32,820 nt of DNA, from IMG/VR virus record IMGVR_UViG_2541047822_000005, one strand, 5' to 3'. How positions within the stretch are numbered: position 1 is the first letter of the stretch; every line of letters starts with the position of its first letter. The position numbers were made by a program, and so were the translations under genes. Source of the stretch: a virus (lineage: Duplodnaviria; Heunggongvirae; Uroviricota; Caudoviricetes). Shown here one piece after another: positions 1 to 32,820 of the stretch. Under the pieces are notes generated by a model that was not told where the DNA came from, did no database searches, and saw nothing but the letters and a program-made list of their open reading frames with translations.

Positions 1-483
1 ATGACGAAGAAAAAAGCACATAAACCTGGTTCAGCGACCATCGCGCTTAACAAGCGCGCCCGGCACGAATACTTTATCGAAGAAGAGTTCGAGGCGGGAC
101 TTGCCCTGCAAGGCTGGGAGGTTAAATCCCTGCGTGCAGGAAAAGCCAATATCAGCGACAGCTACGTCCTTCTGCGTGACGGAGAGGCATTTCTGTTTGG
201 CGCTAACATCACGCCAATGGCTGTGGCCTCCACGCATGTGGTGTGCGATCCTACCCGTACCCGCAAGTTACTTCTCAACCAGCGCGAACTGGACTCATTG
301 TACGGTCGCGTCAATCGAGAAGGCTATACCGTAGTGGCGCTCTCCCTGTACTGGAAAAATGCCTGGTGCAAAGTGAAAATCGGCGTCGCCAAAGGTAAGA
401 AACAGCATGATAAACGTTCAGATATCAAAGAACGCGAATGGCAGGTGGATAAAGCGCGTATCATGAAAAACGCCCACCGTTAA
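1..483 (+). CDS. smpB: SsrA-binding protein SmpB
   Basis: 160-aa ORF whose translation I recognise as enterobacterial SmpB; lies immediately upstream of ssrA as in the conserved smpB-ssrA locus. Confidence 0.95.
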
Positions 484-697: not shown

Positions 698-1060
698 GGG
701 GCTGATTCTGGATTCGACGGGATTTGCGAAACCCAAGGTGCATGCCGAGGGGCGGTTGGCCTCGTAAAAAGCCGCAAAAAATAGTCGCAAACGACGAAAA
801 CTACGCTTTAGCAGCTTAATAACCTGCTTAGAGCCCTCTCTCCCTAGCCTCCGCTCTTAGGACGGGGATCAAGAGAGGTCAAACCCAAAAGAGATCGCGT
901 GGAAGCCCTGCCTGGGGTTGAAGCGTTAAAACTTAATCAGGCTAGTTTGTTAGTGGCGTGTCCGTCCGCAGCTGGCAAGCGAATGTAAAGACTGACTAAG
1001 CATGTAGTACCGAGGATGTAGGAATTTCGGACGCGGGTTCAACTCCCGCCAGCTCCACCA
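698..1060 (+). ncRNA. ssrA: tmRNA (transfer-messenger RNA)
   Basis: Begins GGGGCTGATTCTGGATTCGACGGG and ends GGTTCAACTCCCGCCAGCTCCACCA; 363 nt with the tag-peptide reading frame region, matching enterobacterial ssrA as I recall it. Confidence 0.9.
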
Positions 1061-1070
1061 AATAAATCAA

Positions 1071-1103
1071 GGGGTTACGTGAAAGCGTAGCCCCTTTTTC
1101 TTT
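1071..1103 (+). terminator. rho-independent terminator after ssrA
   Basis: GGGGTTACG / CGTAGCCCC stem with a 6-nt loop, followed by TTTTTCTTT. Confidence 0.5.
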
Positions 1104-1183
1104 AGTAGTGGCGGCAAAATGGCGACAGACTTTTGCGTCCATCTTGCCTGTCGCCATCTTGAAATCATGCAAAGAGGTTTCAC

Positions 1184-1666
1184 ATGGAAGAACTTCACTT
1201 TGTTTACATCAATGCAAATGGTCGTATCGGTGTTCACTCTATACAGAGCATCAGTTATAGCGAAAATCATATACAGGGCATTTGTAAGAACACCGATCGA
1301 ATAAAAACCTTCCGAAAAGACCGCATTCTTAAACAGTACGATTCACCAGAACAAGCCATTCAGGAGTGCGCGTCATTCCTCCCCGAAAACTACTCACATC
1401 TCACCAAGCAGTTTGGTCCGAAAAAAAATACATTCGATGTGTGTTTCACCGGATTTAAGAAAGCAGATAAAGAAAGATTGGTTGATAAGGCGAATGAACA
1501 AGGATTAACGGTAAGAACCTCTGTAACCCAAAGCCTTCAGATGCTCTGTTGCGGTTACAATGCAGGCCCATCAAAAGTATCGGCAGCCAGGATGAAAGGC
1601 ACAATCATCATAGATGAACCTGGCTTTATACATTTTCTTGAAACGGGTGAGATCCCAGATGAATAA
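1184..1666 (+). CDS. hypothetical cargo protein with WYL-like N-terminal region and BRCT-like C-terminal domain
   Basis: 160-aa ORF with an AGAGG ribosome-binding site 7 nt upstream. N-terminal KTFRKDRI resembles the WYL-domain R-x-F-R-x-D-R-I motif; the C-terminal half aligns by eye with the LigA-type BRCT fold. AT-rich relative to flanks. Located between attR and ogr. Confidence 0.6.
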   Translation: MEELHFVYINANGRIGVHSIQSISYSENHIQGICKNTDRIKTFRKDRILKQYDSPEQAIQECASFLPENYSHLTKQFGPKKNTFDVCFTGFKKADKERLVDKANEQGLTVRTSVTQSLQMLCCGYNAGPSKVSAARMKGTIIIDEPGFIHFLETGEIPDE

Positions 1667-1667
1667 A

Positions 1668-1695
1668 AACCTGCCGTAGCAGGTTCTCTTTCTCA
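1668..1695. terminator. bidirectional hairpin terminator between the cargo gene and ogr
   Basis: AACCTGC-CGTA-GCAGGTT hairpin with a T-run on the minus strand and CTCTTTCTC on the plus strand, between two convergent genes. Confidence 0.5.
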
Positions 1696-8959: not shown

Positions 8960-9532
8960 TCAGGGAGATTTATTGTTCTTATTTGCCGGAAATTTTCGAT
9001 AAATGGTAGAAACGCCTACATCAAAAATCAGTGCAATACGCTGTCTTGATTCTCCGGCCTCGAGTAAACGCCCAATCTGTGCCCACTGTTCGCTGGTCAA
9101 CTTAGGACGGCGTCCACCTACTCTGCCTTTAGCACGAGCTGCAGCCAGCCCCGCCCTGGTACGTTCAACTATCAGTTCGCGTTCCATTTCAGCCAGGGCA
9201 CCCATGACATGAAAAAAGAAACGGCCCATTGGGGTGCTGGTATCAATACTGTCAGTCAGGCTTCGGAAATTCACGCCACGCTGGCGCAGCTCTTCTATCA
9301 GCGTAACAAGATGCCGCATACTGCGCCCCAGTCTGTCCAGCTTCCAGACAACCAGCGTGTCTCCTGCCGATAGTGTCCTGAGCAGCTTTTTCAGCCCCGG
9401 TCTGTCGGACTTGGTGCCACTGATTTTATCCTCAAAAATCCGCTCACATCCCGCACAGTTCAGTGCATTGCGTTGCAAATCGGTGTTCTGGTCATTTGTT
9501 GACACGCGTACATAGCCAATAAGCATGATCAT
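8960..9532 (-). CDS. Hin/Gin/Pin-family serine DNA invertase
   Basis: 190-aa ORF with the serine recombinase N-terminus IGYVRVSTNDQ and a C-terminal HTH; sits beside inverted crossover sites flanking the tail-fibre 3' region. True start may be 2 codons downstream. Confidence 0.9.
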   Translation of the reverse strand: MIMLIGYVRVSTNDQNTDLQRNALNCAGCERIFEDKISGTKSDRPGLKKLLRTLSAGDTLVVWKLDRLGRSMRHLVTLIEELRQRGVNFRSLTDSIDTSTPMGRFFFHVMGALAEMERELIVERTRAGLAAARAKGRVGGRRPKLTSEQWAQIGRLLEAGESRQRIALIFDVGVSTIYRKFPANKNNKSP

Positions 9533-9581
9533 CCCCCTGAATAAAAACCGGAGATGATGCCAGTTAGCCGTTATCTCTGCA

Positions 9582-9607
9582 TTTTCATAAACGTTGGTTT
9601 GGGAGAA
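9582..9607. repeat. hix/gix-like inversion crossover site (left)
   Basis: TTTTCATAAACGTTGGTTTGGGAGAA is an inverted copy of the site at 11383-11408, sharing the 14-nt core TTCTCCCAAACCAA. Confidence 0.7.
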
Positions 9608-9913
9608 GCGGCAAAACGGAATGTGGGAACAGGGGAAAATCAGATACCTAGTATGTCAGAATGGACATCTGGGACAGGATGGAATAGAGACCCGTCGGGG
9701 AGAATAATACAGCGGGGATTTGCTATGGCATCAAATCAAACTAACATTTTATTCCCGATACCATTTCCGTATGACGATTTCGAAGTTATCGTTTGTGCAG
9801 CAGATACAGGAACAAATAAAGGGGCCGTAAATGTGTTGCAAAAATCGAGGCAGGGGTTTTCTGTTTCACAGGTTGGAAGTATGCCAGTCGCATACAGATG
9901 GATAGCGGGGTGA
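9608..9913 (+). CDS. silent alternative tail-fibre C-terminal segment
   Basis: Reading frame continuous through the crossover site; both copies encode GLGE in frame, so inversion would fuse this 102-codon segment to the constant part of H. Confidence 0.55.
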   Translation, partial: AAKRNVGTGENQIPSMSEWTSGTGWNRDPSGRIIQRGFAMASNQTNILFPIPFPYDDFEVIVCAADTGTNKGAVNVLQKSRQGFSVSQVGSMPVAYRWIAG

Positions 9914-10356
9914 TTGAAATGTATAAATTTGATCCAAAGAATGCATTATTCTATCCTGCTGCGTCAATTTCCGATTATAAATTGAGCGAAGATGAAATCG
10001 CCACATTCACTGATATTAGCGAGGAGGATGCAACCGAGTTTTTAGGATTCCCGCCGACTGGAAAAATCAGAGGGTCGGACGGTTATGGCAATCCTGCATG
10101 GGTTGAAATACCTCCACCATCACATGAGGAACTTATTGAACAGGCCGAATCAGAGAGGCAATTATTGATTAACCATGCCAACGAATACATGAACAGTAAA
10201 CAATGGCCTGGTAAAGCGGCTATTGGTCGTCTGAATGGTGAGGAACTGGCGCAATATAATTTGTGGCTGGATTATCTGAACGCACTGGAACTGGTTGATA
10301 CCTCCAGTCCGCCAGATATTGAATGGCCTACGCCTCCGGCAGTTCAGGCCAGATGA
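9898..10356 (+). CDS. alternative tail fibre assembly chaperone
   Basis: 152-aa ORF with Tfa-like translation, convergent with G inside the invertible segment. Confidence 0.75.
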   Translation: MDSGVIEMYKFDPKNALFYPAASISDYKLSEDEIATFTDISEEDATEFLGFPPTGKIRGSDGYGNPAWVEIPPPSHEELIEQAESERQLLINHANEYMNSKQWPGKAAIGRLNGEELAQYNLWLDYLNALELVDTSSPPDIEWPTPPAVQAR

Positions 10357-24076: not shown

Positions 24077-24310
24077 CTAATGTAACCAGCTGTCGTCCTC
24101 CCAGACCTGCTGCATTATTTCCATCACTCGCTTTTTATCTTCATCCAGTTTTAACCCGCTCAGCTCAACGCCGTTGGCACTGCCCTTACGGATACGAATT
24201 GCTGTTTTGGGATACAGAGGGCGCAAATTACGGTAAAGCTCGGATTCAAGGGCGTCCAGTGTAGCCTGGCTAATCTTCTGCTCTTTATCGATCATTATTT
24301 CAATGCGCAT
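24077..24310 (-). CDS. DinI-like protein
   Basis: 77-aa ORF whose translation resembles the DinI family; downstream of a LexA-boxed small gene. Confidence 0.75.
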   Translation of the reverse strand: MRIEIMIDKEQKISQATLDALESELYRNLRPLYPKTAIRIRKGSANGVELSGLKLDEDKKRVMEIMQQVWEDDSWLH

Positions 24311-24321
24311 ACAGATTTCCC

Positions 24322-24510
24322 TTAACTGGTTACGTCCATTGACCGGCAGTATTCATGGCTGCGGATTTTCGCCATCAGCTCGTCGGTCAATTCAGACACC
24401 CACTGGATAGCCAGCCGCTTTTCTTCGTCGCTGCACTCACTAGCCGCTACAAGCTTAATAAAAAAATCAATGCGCTGGAGCTTCAACGACTCCAAAAGAT
24501 AGTCCTGCAT
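24322..24510 (-). CDS. small LexA-regulated protein, possibly Tum-like antirepressor
   Basis: 62-aa ORF from the internal ATG, which has a strong AGGAGGG ribosome-binding site (track ORF is 24322..24537). Function assigned only by position and the LexA box. Confidence 0.5.
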   Translation of the reverse strand: MQDYLLESLKLQRIDFFIKLVAASECSDEEKRLAIQWVSELTDELMAKIRSHEYCRSMDVTS

Positions 24511-24558
24511 CTTCCCTCCTATCACGACCCCGGACATGCGTTAACTGTATGCATATCC

Positions 24559-24671: not shown

Positions 24672-27065
24672 TCAGTACCACTGGCGCCATTTGTCATCTT
24701 CCTGCAGTCGATGGTTGCGGTAAAAAATCCGTAGCCCGGCACCTGACGGAATGCTGCCACCACGCAGAAGCAAATCAATCTCAGATGCACTACCTTCAAA
24801 CCCTCTGGCAGTCAGTTCTGCCTCAAGCTGCAGGCGCTGCTGCTCCGAAATACTCTGTTTGAATGCTTTTTTCCGCTTCGGTTTTACCAGTCTTAACCTG
24901 GCTGTCAGCTCCCGGCGTTCCTTCTGGCCCATATTGTGGAGGTAATCGTGCAGTTCCTGCTCATTCATGGTTTTAATATCTGGCAAATCACCCCCTGATT
25001 TGTTCAGATTTTCAACAGGGGGACAGTTATTGCCACGAGTCCAAGGGGCGCAAGCGCCCTGGTCGGCTGCCGCCTCCTGAACGTCAACGGCCTTACGAAC
25101 CATTTTCCACTTCACGGCATGAGTGCAGATCTTGCCCTCTGCAATAGGTGACCAGATGCCATAAATACGAATGCCGTGATCGCCATAGGCGGTCGGCTCT
25201 TCGTTGATTTCATAAGCAGTTCTGATGAGGTGATATTTACGGGGAACCAGTACGCCGCCCTGCTTCATGATGTAGGTGGCAAAACAACCAGCATCAGCAG
25301 CAGCCAGAATGGCATCAAGACGCGGGTTATCCAGTACCGGCGCACCTGCTTTTTTGTCACCCTGTTGCCTTGCCGCCTGACCAGCCAGCAAGCGAAGTTC
25401 ACGGTAAGCCTGACGCCCCGGAATACCAAAGAAGCGGAATTGCTGAACACGATGCAGAGACGCCCAGGCATTCACGTATTCAGCGTTATCACGCAGAGAT
25501 TTACCCGTTTCCTTGCTGATCTCGCCAGCCAGACCACGACCGTCAATGTTCTTACTGATATATTTCGCGATGTAGCTTGTCGGCGTTCCTTTGCGCGGGT
25601 TAATCAACTCAGACTTAAAGCGCGGCCCAGTGTTATTGCCCAGCTCCTCGCGGTCTTCACGGATGGCAAACTTACGCAGTAATGCAGTGATGGCACGGCG
25701 GTCTTTTTTGCGCATGAAACACAACAGGTGCCAGTGAACTGTGCCATCATGATGCGGCTCAGCCACCCGCACGCCATACCAGCGCAACCCGGCTTTGTGC
25801 ATCGCCTTACGAAATGCAGCAAACATGCCGACCAGATAATCGCTGCTTTGTCTTACCGTCGCGTTTGTCCAGGTCGGGTTTGGTCTGCCGTTATTTAGCG
25901 TGGAATGGAAACGCGACGGACAGGTGATAGTGTAGAAAACGGCGCAGTCACCGCGCATTTCCGCGATAAGCTCCAGACCTTTAACACAGGCCATCATCTC
26001 ATTGCGGCGATGCGCAGGGTTGCTGCTGCTGGCGTTTACCACATCCTCCATGTCCAGCGTGTCGCCGTCTTCGTTCACCAGTTCATGAGAACGGAAAAAC
26101 TCCAGCGACTTACGGCGCTGCTCACGTTTATGCATCACGGCTTCATAGCTGACATAAGGAGATGCTTTTTTGCTGACTAGGCAAACAGCGCGCAACTGCT
26201 CTTCCCGCCATTCGCAACGCATCTTCCATAATTTCCGATACCACCAGTCGGCGCACAACATACGCGCCAGCGAACCCGGAATGAGTTCATAGGGCACGGG
26301 TTTACGGCGGTTTCTTTTCCGACGAAGTTTCTCAAACGCAGGCGGGATAACATCCAGACGCAGGGTTTCCGCAGCCACCTTTTCCCATGTCTTGCGGATT
26401 TCTTCTGGCTTAACGTCATCGGTGGCGTACAAATCACCACAAGCGGCCTCAAGACACATGCTCATATGCGCTGCTACCAGGGTGGACAGGCGTTTCACCT
26501 GATCCTGGCTCATTTCAGGCAGGATCAGCAGCCCCTCCAGCCCTTGATGGCTTGCCATAAAACGGAAAGAAACAGATAGCTGACTGTCACGTACACAATC
26601 CAGTCGCTCCAGACATGGCTTAATCGTCTCACGCAAATAGCGGGAATAAGCCTTTGGCCTGCCCAGGCTGCTGAAGTATTCGATACGTTGCATCAGCGGC
26701 TTGCTGATATGAGAAGGCTGGGCGCTGACATCTGCCAGAATGACCATGTCCGGGTTAAAACGCTGCTGCTCATGCGCCAGCTTTGCCCGGCTAATGAGCT
26801 TATCCTGCTCCATTTCGCGCTGGACAGGATCACGGGATTCATTAAAGAAATAACGCTCCCAGACCTGCTCACTCAGTGCCTCGCGGCGCAGTTGTTCCTG
26901 CTCGTTATCGGCAGCGTACAGAGTGATCAGGTTTGAAAGTGCAGACTCCGGCGCAACTTCCGCCGGATCCAGATAAGGGTTAATGGCCTTTTTCGGGCCG
27001 TTCCATGAAAATGCTGCGGCAGCCTCGTTAAAGCCGCTAGAGTTGCTCATATCGTCATGACTCAT
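24672..27065 (-). CDS. A: replication initiation protein A (rolling-circle nickase)
   Basis: 797-aa ORF with gpA-family translation in the expected early-operon position. Confidence 0.85.
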
Positions 27066-27919
27066 ACACGCACCTCGTACACAGCAGAACTATCCACGCC
27101 ACGCGAAGGATCAAATCCCATCCAGCAGCGCGACCCGGAAACAGCAATGATTTCTGTTGCAGATTTACTCTCGCCAGCTGACACGCCGATGCTGCGTTTT
27201 GCCTTGATGTAGTGGTGAGTGAAATTGCGATACAGCGAACGGATCAGGGATGTGTCACTGTTAGAAACAATGACCGGATGACCTTCTGATGATCGATATT
27301 CAAGAACGGATGCCAGGTGATACTGGTCATCTTCAGTGAAGCCGTTAGTGTGATAACCGGAAAACGTGCCGTCATACGGCGGATCGCAATACACCACATC
27401 CCCCGCCTTCAACATCGCCAGCGTTTCATCAAAGCTGGCGCAGATAAACGTTGCTCGCTGGGCCTTTTCTGCAAATGCGCGAATTTCTTTTTCAGGGAAA
27501 TACGGATTTTTATAATTACCGTAGGGAATGTTGAAATGCCCGCTCTTGTTATAGCGACATAAACCACGGTAACCGTGACGATTGAGATACAGGAAATATA
27601 CCGCTTTCATGAAATCAGTAATTTCAGTTGAGTAATTAAACTCCTGCCTTATGTTGTAATAAGCCACCTCCCTGTTTGCGATCTCAAATAAAACTCTGGC
27701 GCGAGATATAAACGATTCACAATCAGAGGCAACCTTTTTATAGAGGTTGATTAAATCAGGATTAATATCCGCAACCAGATAGCTGGGGTAATCCGTCTCC
27801 ATCATCACAGCACAGGAACCCGCGAAAGGTTCAACCAGTCGCGGGCCAGCAGGAAGGTGTTTTTTCAGTTCGGACATAATGGCGGTTTTATTTCCCACCC
27901 ATTTCAGGATGGTGCTCAT
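27062..27919 (-). CDS. Dam-like DNA N6-adenine methyltransferase
   Basis: Conserved ILKWVGNK N-terminus, FAGSCAV S-adenosylmethionine-binding motif and DPPY catalytic motif. Start taken at the internal ATG, which overlaps the upstream stop in an ATGA arrangement (track ORF is 27062..27979). Confidence 0.85.
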
Positions 27920-28143
27920 ACAGCACCTCCGTTGTAATGTTTGCCTTTCAGCTCTGCGATTTCCTGACAGGTAATGCAAAGCTGCACACCCGGAATGGCA
28001 CGGCGGCGTGCTGGCGGAATTGGCGCTTCACACTCAACGCAAAGCACGCGGGACACGCCCGGCGTTTTGGCACGGGCAGCACGGATATGACGTTGGCGTT
28101 CTTCTTCAACTCGCTGCTGTACGAGATCCATTGCATCAGCCAT
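27916..28143 (-). CDS. TraR/DksA-family C4 zinc-finger protein
   Basis: 75-aa ORF with CxxC-N17-CxxC (CVECEAP...CITCQ). Confidence 0.7.
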   Translation of the reverse strand: MADAMDLVQQRVEEERQRHIRAARAKTPGVSRVLCVECEAPIPPARRRAIPGVQLCITCQEIAELKGKHYNGGAV

Positions 28144-30101: not shown

Positions 30102-30740
30102 TTGATTATGAGTTTAATCAAGGCGGGGAATGATAGTGGTGGGCGCGATGCGATTAATAGGCTTATTAAGGCTTACAACTTCAGCTCACGACAGCAGCTC
30201 TGCGAACATCTGGAAGTATCAAAAAGCACTATGGCTAACAGATACTTAAGGGATAGCTTTCCTGCCGAATGGGTAATCCAATGTGCCCTTGAAACAGGAG
30301 CTTCCCTTCTATGGCTGGCTACTGGTCAAGGAGATATGTATGCGTGTGAGAACGAAGAAACAAATCTCAAAAATGAACCTCCCGTCACTGTAAGACCACT
30401 TTCTAAGATCGTTGCTCCTAGCATCAAACGTGTTGAACTGAAGAACGGCGAACTGCAGCCAAGTGATGAAATTCTTCTTGATAGCAGCCTGCTCGATGGT
30501 GACTCATCCAACGCTTTATTTGTTAAAACAGCTAATGATAGCTTTGTAGTGGATACGTCTGTTAAACAAGTCAGTAATGGCTTCTGGTTAGTCGATATGG
30601 ACGGAGTTAAAAGCATCGTCAAAATTGCGCGCATACCCGGAAACAAAATAGTAGTTAACCAAGATGACACTTCATTTGAATGTTCTGTAGATGATGTGGA
30701 AGTCGTAGGACGTGCAGTCAAAGTAATCAAGAACCTCTAA
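30102..30740 (+). CDS. cI: CI-like immunity repressor (186 type)
   Basis: 212-aa ORF with an N-terminal helix-turn-helix and a distinct C-terminal domain; upstream of and co-oriented with int. Confidence 0.75.
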   Translation: MIMSLIKAGNDSGGRDAINRLIKAYNFSSRQQLCEHLEVSKSTMANRYLRDSFPAEWVIQCALETGASLLWLATGQGDMYACENEETNLKNEPPVTVRPLSKIVAPSIKRVELKNGELQPSDEILLDSSLLDGDSSNALFVKTANDSFVVDTSVKQVSNGFWLVDMDGVKSIVKIARIPGNKIVVNQDDTSFECSVDDVEVVGRAVKVIKNL

Positions 30741-30743
30741 CTT

Positions 30744-31784
30744 ATGACCATCAGAAAACAGCCGAACGGAAAATGGTTGTGTGAGTGCTATCCCAATGGA
30801 CGCAATGGTAAGCGCGTGCGTAAGCAATTTGCTACCAAAGGCGAAGCCATTGCGTTTGAAAGCTTCACAATGGAAGAAGTGAACAAAAAACCATGGCTAG
30901 GGGAAAAGGAAGATCGGCGACATCTATCAGAATTAATTGAGCTGTGGTATTCCCTGTATGGTCAAACACTCGCAGACCCCAAGCGCCTCATGGCGAAACT
31001 TAGAATTATCTGTAATGGTCTAGGCGATCCCATCGCCTCAGAACTGACAGCTGGTGAGTTTACGAAATACCGCGAAGCACGGTTAAAAGGTGAAGTACGA
31101 AATGAAGATGGCACGCTTATGTCGCCCGTTAAGCCCCGCACGGTAAATCTTGAACAGCGCAACCTATCATCTGTTTTTGGTACACTGAAAAAGCTGGGCC
31201 ACTGGTCAGCCCCCAACCCGCTTGCTGGGCTGCCAACATTTAAAATTGCTGAGGGTGAATTGGCGTTCCTGACCCCGGAAGAAATTAAACGTCTGCTGGA
31301 TGCCTGTGCTGATTCTCAAAGCCCCAGTCTGCTGATGATTGCAAAAATATGCTTGGCCACCGGCGCACGCTGGAGCGAAGCCGAAAACCTACAGAGTCAT
31401 CAGGTATCAAAATACCGTATCACTTATACCAAGACTAAAGGAAAGAAAAACCGAACAGTGCCTATTTCAAAGGATTTATATGAAGAACTGCCTAAGAATA
31501 GGGGAAAATTATTTACACCTTGTAGGAAAGCTTTTGAACGTGCGGTAAAACGAGCTGGTATCGAGCTACCAGAAGGGCAATGCACACACGTATTACGACA
31601 TACATTTGCAAGTCACTTTATGATGAATGGCGGAAACATACTGGTGCTGCGCGATATTCTGGGCCATGTCGATATAAAAATGACAATGATTTACGCCCAC
31701 TTCGCTCCCGACCATCTGGAAGATGCTGTAACCAAAAATCCTCTTGCTAACCTTGGATGGAGAAAATTAGAAAGTGCTTGTTAA
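30744..31784 (+). CDS. int: tyrosine integrase
   Basis: 346-aa ORF with the tyrosine-recombinase C-terminal motifs (R...HVLRHTFASHFMMNGG...LGH...MTMIYAH). Confidence 0.9.
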   Translation: MTIRKQPNGKWLCECYPNGRNGKRVRKQFATKGEAIAFESFTMEEVNKKPWLGEKEDRRHLSELIELWYSLYGQTLADPKRLMAKLRIICNGLGDPIASELTAGEFTKYREARLKGEVRNEDGTLMSPVKPRTVNLEQRNLSSVFGTLKKLGHWSAPNPLAGLPTFKIAEGELAFLTPEEIKRLLDACADSQSPSLLMIAKICLATGARWSEAENLQSHQVSKYRITYTKTKGKKNRTVPISKDLYEELPKNRGKLFTPCRKAFERAVKRAGIELPEGQCTHVLRHTFASHFMMNGGNILVLRDILGHVDIKMTMIYAHFAPDHLEDAVTKNPLANLGWRKLESAC

Positions 31785-31890
31785 TAACTATATCCAACAA
31801 TACCCATGGATATCGTACTTACTTATCATAATATATTTTTTATATATATGCCTTGAATTATATCTATGCGTATCAAAAAAAGGCTTTAAC

Positions 31891-32820
31891 ATGGATGAAA
31901 GGCCATTAACAAGTCAATACTTATTTAAACAATCACTTAGGATTCCTGTATTTTCAGCGATATACTTTGGTATATTTTCCTGGCTTGGACATTCCCCTCA
32001 ATTTGATAGTGAGGGCTTTAATAATTTCATTGCAATTAGCAAGCTTCCTATCGCCTTACTTTCTTTGTCCATACCATTTGTTGCTGTCGTAGCAAACATA
32101 CACCGCACAGTTCAAACAAACCGACAAATTGAGGAAACCAAGCAAAAGAATCTATCTGATAGCTACTATAGCCATCTAAAGTTCGTTACTGATTATTTCA
32201 CCAATTTACCTAACAAAACCATTAAACGCGAACGTCATTATGGTACTAAAGAGATAAGTTATAAAATAAACTACCCAATACATCTATATAGATATATTTT
32301 CATAAATAGCTCACCAGAGAAGGGACGGCCTAAAAATACAGATAAAGAATACATACGTGAAGTAAATAATCACTGGGTTGATATACTAAAAAACCTAGAG
32401 AAGATACATTCATCTAATCGTGGCTCTCAGTTTGCCGAAGTTTTAATCCGTCAAATGCAATCTCTTCATTCAATAGAAAAACACTTATCCGAACTTAATC
32501 GAATGCTTTGCCTAACTCCCATGGAGTTAAATGAACATGCAACTTTATACTTTGATGGATATGAAATGATTACTAACTTCATGTCCAGCATTGAACTTGG
32601 CGATACAATTGAAACCTACTTCAAATTTACCATTGATATTCTTGATATTACCGATAATTTCCTTTCATTCAAGGATGATGGCTCGTCTGGGCAAATCATT
32701 ATACTAGCAAGATTACTGAAAGATAATAATCCAGCTATCTTTGATGAAATTGTAACAAACAAAGGGAAGGCTCAACCTTCGTTGACCTACAATGGCGACA
32801 GATTGGCGACAGAACATTAA
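31891..32820 (+). CDS. hypothetical AT-rich protein with two predicted N-terminal transmembrane helices
   Basis: 309-aa ORF from the internal ATG (track ORF 31774..32820 overlaps the int 3' end). Two hydrophobic segments, IPVFSAIYFGIFSWLG and ISKLPIALLSLSIPFVAVVANI, are followed by a soluble domain; codon usage is markedly AT-rich. Confidence 0.6.
   Translation: MDERPLTSQYLFKQSLRIPVFSAIYFGIFSWLGHSPQFDSEGFNNFIAISKLPIALLSLSIPFVAVVANIHRTVQTNRQIEETKQKNLSDSYYSHLKFVTDYFTNLPNKTIKRERHYGTKEISYKINYPIHLYRYIFINSSPEKGRPKNTDKEYIREVNNHWVDILKNLEKIHSSNRGSQFAEVLIRQMQSLHSIEKHLSELNRMLCLTPMELNEHATLYFDGYEMITNFMSSIELGDTIETYFKFTIDILDITDNFLSFKDDGSSGQIIILARLLKDNNPAIFDEIVTNKGKAQPSLTYNGDRLATEH

Follow-up and report, generated by a model that had tools for sequence, protein, structure and literature searches.

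What a small AT-rich gene is doing between the attachment (att) site and ogr of an Escherichia coli prophage, under a database label that calls it a DNA ligase, is the question raised by positions 1184-1666 of a 32,820-nucleotide stretch of viral DNA (IMG/VR record IMGVR_UViG_2541047822_000005; Caudoviricetes), the whole of which is called the window here. The gene almost certainly encodes a small soluble protein in which a two-helix linker connects a ligand-sensing WYL barrel to a BRCT domain of the RFC1/LigA class, and which has neither a catalytic domain nor a helix-turn-helix (HTH). It is a lysogeny-module gene, and it belongs to a large family almost confined to temperate P2/186-like phages and mobile elements. 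The gene and its product are named WYL-BRCT after the two domains.

An earlier note on this DNA, made from the letters alone, had proposed a WYL-type motif in the N-terminal half of the protein and a resemblance to BRCT in the C-terminal half, to be checked by profile and structure searches. Structure prediction and fold search bore out both domains. The AlphaFold2 model, built on the family alignment, has an overall predicted local distance difference test (pLDDT) score of 91.5 that dips to 68 at residues 71-80, and it runs from a five-stranded barrel through two helices and a lower-confidence linker to a beta-alpha domain at residues 85-154. The N-terminal half has the Sm/SH3-like five-stranded beta-barrel fold of WYL (PF13280), with the WYL domains of CapW, DriD, and PafBC as its top structural matches, and the C-terminal half has the alpha/beta fold of BRCT (PF00533). 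KTFRKDRI, at residues 41-48, is the best-conserved part of the barrel, with T42 invariant and F43, R44, and D46 retained in at least 90% of the family, and it carries the R-x-F-R-x-D-R-I signature of WYL domains with its ligand-facing arginine. Across the BRCT half of the family alignment T89, G90, and K131 never vary and K96 hardly does, which gives the phosphate-pocket pattern of the RFC1/LigA class (threonine or serine and glycine after strand 1, and a lysine opening helix 2). The three invariant residues line up with FTG...GPKK in yeast Rfc1 and with GQSK in human RFC1, residues that form the 5′-phosphate pocket in the BRCT region of RFC1.

Sequence profiles alone gave a weaker signal for the window protein, which scores 19.5 bits with Pfam BRCT, just below the gathering cut-off of 21.3, and has no match to Pfam WYL at E <= 10, with the PADLOC WYL model at E 0.042. 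Among 42 relatives, BRCT was matched at E <= 0.1 in 37, several of them above the cut-off (e.g., 29-54 bits), and Pfam WYL in five, with a best E of 1.5e-5; one relative, P0195, passes the WYL gathering score with 27.6 bits against a cut-off of 21.8. The best sequence-profile matches of the BRCT domain are RFC1 (E 3e-5) and the LigA of T. filiformis (E 1e-4). The N-terminal domain found no match among PDB entries by sequence profile, and its identification as WYL came from fold comparison only. No HTH family, WCX extension, or catalytic domain was detected in the window protein, whose barrel begins at residue 3. Membership among the HTH-WYL-WCX regulators was therefore rejected, as the winged HTH and WCX are both missing and the C-terminal half is BRCT. 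The net charge of the protein is about zero: the WYL half is mildly basic, the BRCT half mildly acidic.

The family corresponds to PHROG 2561, which carries the mistaken label 'DNA ligase', as do RefSeq phage records, and the record of phage Cartapus calls the product an exonuclease; the chance that either label is right is negligible. Only the BRCT tail matches a ligase, and the 160 amino acids hold neither a nucleotidyltransferase nor an oligonucleotide-binding (OB) domain. The KxDG adenylation motif, OB, zinc-finger, and helix-hairpin-helix features of LigA are absent, and so is a full-length match: the LigA model TIGR00575 reaches 19 bits against a cut-off of 444 in a weak match to residues 42-146, and other LigA models reach 10-13 bits against cut-offs of 369-1051, all on the C-terminal BRCT region. 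The DEDDh exonuclease model NF004719 likewise scores 25.3 bits against 389, over profile positions 232-307 of 331, which is its BRCT tail, and no DnaQ-like DEDD exonuclease domain was found. Both labels have been carried over from proteins with a BRCT tail, LigA in one case and the DEDDh exonuclease in the other. A split-ligase subunit, like subunit B of the PR1/T5 enzymes, was also considered and rejected, as no scanned open reading frame (ORF) of the window phage resembles a ligase catalytic subunit. An exact-sequence look-up identifies the product with WP_021539273.1, labelled 'hypothetical protein'.

The locus is a genuine gene under purifying selection, because it has many homologues, 22 E. 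coli alleles compared with that of the window give ratios of nonsynonymous to synonymous substitution rates (dN/dS) of 0.04-0.34, and one of 39 alleles has a premature stop. That stop lies at codon 123 of an IMG/VR E. coli prophage copy (L100 4001-4480), so loss of the gene is occasionally tolerated. The IMG/VR scan returned mostly near-identical ends of E. coli prophages, and it was used for dN/dS and added no new contexts. The ORF runs from ATG to TAA on the plus strand, behind its own Shine-Dalgarno sequence, and has a G+C content of 42-43%, compared with 55-59% in the adjacent tail genes. It is followed by a terminator-like hairpin, shared with the convergent ogr, that was scored on the plus strand; in Yersinia phage MLG42 (L133) the counterpart of this hairpin scores on both strands. 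The AT-rich ORF with its own ribosome-binding site and a downstream bidirectional terminator, placed by the earlier note between the integration site and ogr, is thus borne out, with ssrA as the integration target.

Homologues are numerous at every level of clustering. In a 90%-clustered collection there are 122 at E <= 1e-3, with identity down to 30%, and a 50%-cluster library holds 197 representative clusters at E <= 1e-30 and 886 at E <= 1e-10. The prophage block with the gene occurs in 170 of 5426 complete E. coli genomes (3%), always adjoining ssrA. Matches in phage databases are to phages classified as Peduoviridae or P2-like and to one Pseudomonas phage, and all of the neighbourhoods inspected contain repressor or lysogeny genes. 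Isolated phages of Mannheimia, Burkholderia, Vibrio, Yersinia, and Escherichia also carry the family.

Stand-alone proteins about 160 amino acids long make up most of the 142 best cluster representatives, and two further architectures recur. About 47 of the 142 have predicted transmembrane segments, between one and five of them, at the N-terminus as a rule and at the C-terminus in some cases, in a layout of membrane helices, an acidic or low-complexity linker, and WYL-BRCT. Three such membrane-anchored copies lie right behind the repressor in P2-like prophages of Pasteurellaceae or Betaproteobacteria (L036 5536-6492, L038 5719-6519, and L043 5278-6219); further representatives are P0108, P0113-P0115, and about 40 others, some from marine metagenomes. 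About 13 of the 142 are fused, at either end, to a conserved region of about 150-230 amino acids, here called domain X (carriers P0122, P0133, P0157, P0174, P0175, P0190, P0191, P0195, P0238, P0257, and P0262), which also occurs as a separate neighbouring ORF at L046 4587-5036. Its motifs are W-x-F-x-V...ALDI...WTQG..F..GD.F...LQV...TQ..F..LL.TG, and it has no match in Pfam, PDB sequences, or PADLOC.

The genomic setting of the family was compared across 48 loci, with one genome per species, and at least 21 of these are in P2-like prophages, as judged by tblastn with the window phage's own proteins. Two arrangements recur. The one found in the window, with the att site, the WYL-BRCT gene, and convergent ogr and gpD in that order, is found in Escherichia, Klebsiella, Citrobacter, Erwinia, Tatumella, and Plesiomonas, so that homologues do stand at the ogr-att junction of other P2-like prophages, where the earlier note had suggested looking for them. 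In the other, which at least 18 relatives show, the gene follows the immunity repressor gene in the same direction, at a distance of 3-50 base pairs (bp). The adjacent repressors are of three mutually unrelated types: the 186-CI type (L007, L009, L021-L023, Xenorhabdus L135, and Yersinia ruckeri L141), a lambda-like HTH-S24 type (L027, L029, L030, L034-L036, and Mannheimia phage PHL101), and a short HTH type (L026, L038, and L043). Hosts of the repressor-adjacent copies include Enterobacterales, Vibrionaceae, Aeromonas, Pasteurellaceae, Marinobacter, Pseudomonas, and a betaproteobacterial metagenome-assembled genome, and Vibrio phage PV94 has the same arrangement. The Xenorhabdus locus reads CI, 35 bp, WYL-BRCT, 3 bp, int, and the three genes are predicted to form an operon because there is no plus-strand terminator between them. 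In all arrangements the gene shares its orientation with the lysogenic operon and points at the tail operon's end.

Several repressor-adjacent loci have variable genes between WYL-BRCT and int, different in every locus (L021 6536-7039, L022 7644-9164, L023 6468-7922, and L027 6527-8314), including KAP-type P-loop nucleoside triphosphatases, recognized by eye, and other unrelated ORFs. WYL-BRCT is the constant first gene after cI in this interval, and it is the later cargo that varies. These variable genes fit the cI-int interval of K139/PhiO18P-like P2 relatives, a described defence hotspot (Rousset et al. 2022, PMC9122126).

Free phages show how the window arrangement relates to the repressor-adjacent one. 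Phage Cartapus (L052) has the order repressor, int, a 401-amino-acid 'RES-like' gene, attP, WYL-BRCT, and convergent ogr, and MLG42 has cI, int, attP, WYL-BRCT, and convergent ogr and D, without the RES-like gene. In the window lineage attP thus lies between int and the gene, in the circular order cI-int-(cargo)-attP-gene; the gene has ended up across attP from cI-int, and the cI-int operon of the circular phage is directed towards attP and the gene. An ORF at 31774-32820(+) follows int directly in the window and runs past its end, and it has no Pfam match at E <= 1e-3; the record for its Cartapus counterpart (L052 1508-2713) reads 'RES protein, NAD+ binding domain'. The ORF is missing from MLG42 and so has the look of variable cargo placed between int and attP, and its presence puts attL past the window end. 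In other E. coli P2-like prophages gpD is 91-97% identical and divergence starts exactly at the end of D, so the ogr allele, WYL-BRCT, attP, and int travel as a single block, with no hotspot of alternative contents. The earlier description of the gene as a single-gene cargo locus is therefore right about its place between att and ogr, but not about its nature: it is a member of a large family in a constant block, and the variable element is the gene after int.

The leader of the gene lies inside the att region. Directly 5′ of the gene is the ssrA terminator hairpin, with a 12-bp stem and a T run; the same hairpin sits within attP of the free phage MLG42, between int and WYL-BRCT, and the 3′ end of ssrA and its terminator are supplied by the phage. 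Repeats of TGGCG(A/G)CAG occur as two direct copies in the leader (GTGGCGGCAAAATGGCGACAG, 1108-1128), one inverted copy at 1149-1158, and a similar tandem pair (TGGCGACAGA) at 32793-32813. The repeats are probably Int arm-type sites, the direct pair belonging to the P′ arm, because this pair is conserved in relatives, even those integrated at other sites. No second copy of the ssrA 3′ end was found in the window, where the best local alignment is no better than shuffled sequence apart from the short arm-type repeat, and comparison with Cartapus and MLG42 places attL beyond the window end.

The earlier note had supposed a native promoter, yet between the ssrA terminator and the start codon (1097-1183) there is no consensus sigma-70 promoter, and the alignment of 14 relatives shows no conserved -35 or -10 element. 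The ssrA gene is very strongly transcribed. In the window prophage, expression of WYL-BRCT presumably must come from read-through or from a non-consensus promoter in the 90-nucleotide leader, because a terminator lies upstream and no consensus promoter is present. The idea that integration merely uncouples the gene from the cI-int transcript is insufficient, as the terminator separates int from the gene in the circular phage too.

Features of the WYL-BRCT locus and its surroundings in the window
Feature	Position	Strand	Basis or remark
WYL-BRCT protein gene	1184..1666	+	ORF; PHROG 2561 (E 2e-76); homologues; purifying selection; exact-sequence look-up
WYL domain, residues 3-52, five-stranded Sm/SH3-like barrel with KTFRKDRI	1190..1339	+	
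Two-helix linker, residues 55-73, lowest conservation; residues about 74-83 low confidence	1346..1402	+	AlphaFold2 secondary structure; alignment
BRCT domain, residues 84-154, RFC1/LigA class	1433..1645	+	
Shine-Dalgarno GAGG, 6 nucleotides 5′ of ATG	1174..1177	+	read from sequence; AAGGTG/GAGG at the equivalent place in relatives
Terminator-like hairpin just past the stop codon, common to convergent WYL-BRCT gene and ogr	1668..1685	.	scored on plus strand
Direct repeats in the 5′ leader of the gene (GTGGCGGCAAAATGGCGACAG)	1108..1128	+	conserved in relatives, even those integrated elsewhere
ssrA terminator hairpin, 12-bp stem and T run, within att region, directly 5′ of the gene	1069..1096	+	
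Transfer-messenger RNA (tmRNA) gene ssrA, integration target	698..1060	+	ARAGORN; Rfam RF00023, 295.8 bits
smpB, at window start	1-483		
ogr, convergent with WYL-BRCT gene	1693-1911/1956	-	Ogr_Delta, E 1.5e-20
186-type CI repressor	30102-30740	+	Phage_CI_repr and Phage_CI_C, E 1e-33 and 1e-40
Integrase	30744-31784	+	

The window as a whole holds a P2/186-like E. coli prophage after ssrA, with ogr, gpD, gpU, gpT, other tail and head genes, replication gene A, a Dam-type methyltransferase, Fil, CII (CP76), a 186-type CI, and an integrase. The tmRNA was the sole match in an Rfam scan of 500-2200. The methyltransferase, at 27062-27979(-) in the early operon, is a D12-class (Dam-type) N6-adenine enzyme (Pfam E 6e-76). 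A Resolvase and HTH_7 invertase at 8960-9532(-) adjoins oppositely oriented ORFs for a tail-fibre C-terminal part and tail-fibre assembly at 9554-9913(+) and 9898-10356(+), and 8960-10356 is probably an invertible host-range switch of the Gin/Cin type. Two small ORFs, 24077-24310(-) and 24322-24537(-), lie between replication gene A and the portal gene, at the position of the tin/old hotspot of P2. The 77-amino-acid product of one of them is DinI/Tum-like by eye and suggests a 186-style SOS antirepressor module.

The function of such a protein was considered in light of its domains and its place. WYL domains with solved ligand complexes bind single-stranded DNA (ssDNA), and the BRCT region of RFC1 binds 5′-phosphorylated recessed duplex ends. 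The reading preferred here, and held tentatively, is that WYL-BRCT is a non-enzymatic, lysogen-expressed binder of ssDNA/5′-phosphate junctions that excludes invading DNA, by way of superinfection exclusion or defence. The barrel would bind ssDNA as in the CapW and DriD complexes, the T89-G90...K131 pocket would bind the 5′-phosphate at the adjoining duplex end as in RFC1, and together the two domains may recognize gaps, nicks, resected ends, or cohesive ends. The protein would be produced in the lysogen alongside the repressor and would act without catalysis, by sitting on such structures or tethering them when foreign DNA enters or replicates, and membrane-anchored relatives would act likewise at the inner membrane, where foreign DNA enters. 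During rolling-circle replication of the P2 type the nicked 5′ end stays covalently bound to protein A, and it may be speculated that this mode of replication could spare the resident phage from a binder of 5′-phosphate junctions. Exclusion is preferred because the two well-studied gene sets conserved just downstream of prophage repressors, rexAB and bstA, both serve in defence and use the repressor's own promoter, because the cI-int interval is a recognized defence hotspot, and because a protein that encounters DNA on its way into the cell would naturally be anchored in the membrane. Several points weigh on the other side. The protein has no effector domain, which makes exclusion by simple occupancy an assumption, and its near-zero net charge and mildly acidic BRCT half are not what is typical of proteins that bind DNA avidly, and would suit a protein or a small ligand as partner instead. 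A gene that stays constant as its neighbours vary, and that is linked to unrelated repressors, looks more like a phage life-cycle function than like interchangeable defence cargo. In the window, int, the cargo gene, and attP come between the repressor operon and the gene, which has a strong terminator upstream and lacks a consensus promoter. The sole similarity in PADLOC is to the BRCT end of the candidate PDC-S48, and no functional study of the family was found in the literature.

The 5′ junction of an ssDNA gap is the structure for RecFOR loading of RecA. A sensor of DNA damage or gaps in the lysis-lysogeny decision would bind this junction and tune RecA*/SOS, or act on the repressor or switch, stabilizing lysogeny or aiding induction. 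Such a role is the main rival to exclusion and is rather unlikely, although it explains better than exclusion the tight, conserved pairing with the immunity repressor beside variable cargo, and the WYL domains that head the structural matches are themselves sensors of DNA damage or ssDNA. A 2026 preprint (10.64898/2026.07.02.736140), in which cI-plus-BRCT modules replace quorum-sensing modules in Roseobacter prophages, independently guesses at a DNA-damage response for these modules. However, the partner repressors come from three families unrelated to one another, among them S24 types, which cleave themselves and require no helper, so a direct and specific interaction with the repressor is unlikely; one third of the family is membrane-anchored, which is hard to square with a cytoplasmic switch regulator; the protein has no HTH or protease domain; and the window phage appears by eye to have a DinI/Tum-like antirepressor region of its own (24077-24537). 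The same class of predicted ligand would also suit a protein with which the phage helps itself, by capping its own cohesive ends, nicks, or gaps against RecBCD or against end- or gap-sensing defences (anti-defence), or by aiding circularization as lysogeny is established. The BRCT domain resembles that of LigA and the nick-binding subunit B of the phage PR1 ligase, and an att-adjacent gene co-directional with cI-int in the circular genome fits lysogeny establishment, but this explanation is quite improbable: the phage-database matches, which are Peduoviridae or P2-like phages and one Pseudomonas phage, include no known virulent phage family, the gene belongs to the lysogenic and not the early lytic operon, int and the gene are kept apart by a terminator even when the genome is circular, and the membrane anchors of many relatives are ill suited to protecting replicating DNA. 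The near-neutral charge and mildly acidic BRCT half would be accommodated by a protein adaptor or decoy. Its BRCT domain would imitate the one in host LigA, or take up a phospho- or ADP-ribosyl-ligand, and in this way recruit or inhibit a factor of host replication or repair, while the WYL domain would serve as an allosteric sensor. BRCT domains are often protein- or phosphopeptide-binding modules, LigA model TIGR00575 does match residues 42-146 weakly, and domain X could be a partner-binding or effector module in the relatives that carry it. This is nonetheless very improbable, as the nearest BRCT relatives by sequence are of the DNA-binding RFC1/LigA class, the phosphate-pocket residues are invariant, and no conserved partner lies beside the gene in the window. 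Exclusion of invading DNA remains the preferred reading. In a broader form, WYL-BRCT proteins may be an unrecognized class of non-enzymatic, structure-specific DNA sensors in the repressor operon, reading ssDNA/5′-phosphate junctions so as to block invading DNA, which membrane-tethered forms would catch where it enters, or to inform the lysis-lysogeny switch independently of LexA/RecA cleavage; that proposal is possible, if rather doubtful.

Genes co-transcribed with prophage repressors have repeatedly proved important, as with rexAB, bstA, and other exclusion systems, and the WYL-BRCT family is abundant, with hundreds of clusters across Proteobacteria in addition to its share of E. coli genomes. 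With two domains whose known relatives sense ssDNA and 5′-phosphate DNA ends, and with no effector, the protein would offer a simple model of the way in which a phage senses the condition of the cell's DNA. Correcting the 'DNA ligase' label is a practical gain for phage annotation. The domain assignment is solid and the linkage to repressors is new; the function is one we infer, and the general idea of an accessory gene behind a repressor is familiar.

Among known systems, the nearest on the WYL side are CapW, BrxR, DriD, and PafBC, WYL-domain regulators of defence and of responses to DNA damage, which have a winged HTH and a WCX extension. WYL-BRCT has neither, its barrel standing at the very N-terminus and fused to BRCT, and it is therefore not a transcription factor of their type; it is also phage-encoded and does not lie beside a host defence operon. 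With the BRCT domains of RFC1 and LigA and with subunit B of the split ligases of PR1/T5 type (9hu3_B) it shares the fold and the aligned T-G...K pocket residues, but neither the protein nor the rest of the phage supplies a ligase or clamp-loader catalytic part, and its BRCT domain is mildly acidic. No PADLOC model of a validated defence system matches the protein, and the candidate system PDC-S48 (411 amino acids) has a similar C-terminal BRCT domain, with a match (E 2.4e-7) over the last 70 residues only. No paper in the literature searched gives the family a function or notes its link to repressors, and RefSeq uses the label 'BRCT domain-containing protein'. Makarova et al. 2014 (PMC4012209), who cite Anantharaman et al. 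2012, name the fusion a single time when listing WYL architectures, in keeping with the earlier impression that this is not a characterized phage protein.

Two further parallels lie in genomic position. The defence genes bstA and rexAB are conserved just downstream of prophage repressors and share the repressor promoter (PMC8585504). The WYL-BRCT gene of the relatives likewise lies directly behind the repressor across diverse prophages, presumably sharing its promoter, but it has no similarity in sequence or fold to rexAB of lambda or to BstA, and in the window it is separated from cI by int, the cargo ORF, and attP. The cI-int hotspot of K139/PhiO18P-like P2 relatives is the second, as exactly this interval holds the gene in L021 (Parasalinivibrio), in L027 (Aeromonas), and in Vibrio phage PV94, where it differs from the variable systems that come after it in being constant and first; the main text and the part of the supplement text consulted from Rousset et al. 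2022 (PMC9122126) contain no mention of it. What is new here, relative to all of these, is the conserved linkage to the repressor, for a protein that, within the lysogeny module of P2-like phages, joins a WYL sensor domain to BRCT instead of to an HTH or an enzyme.

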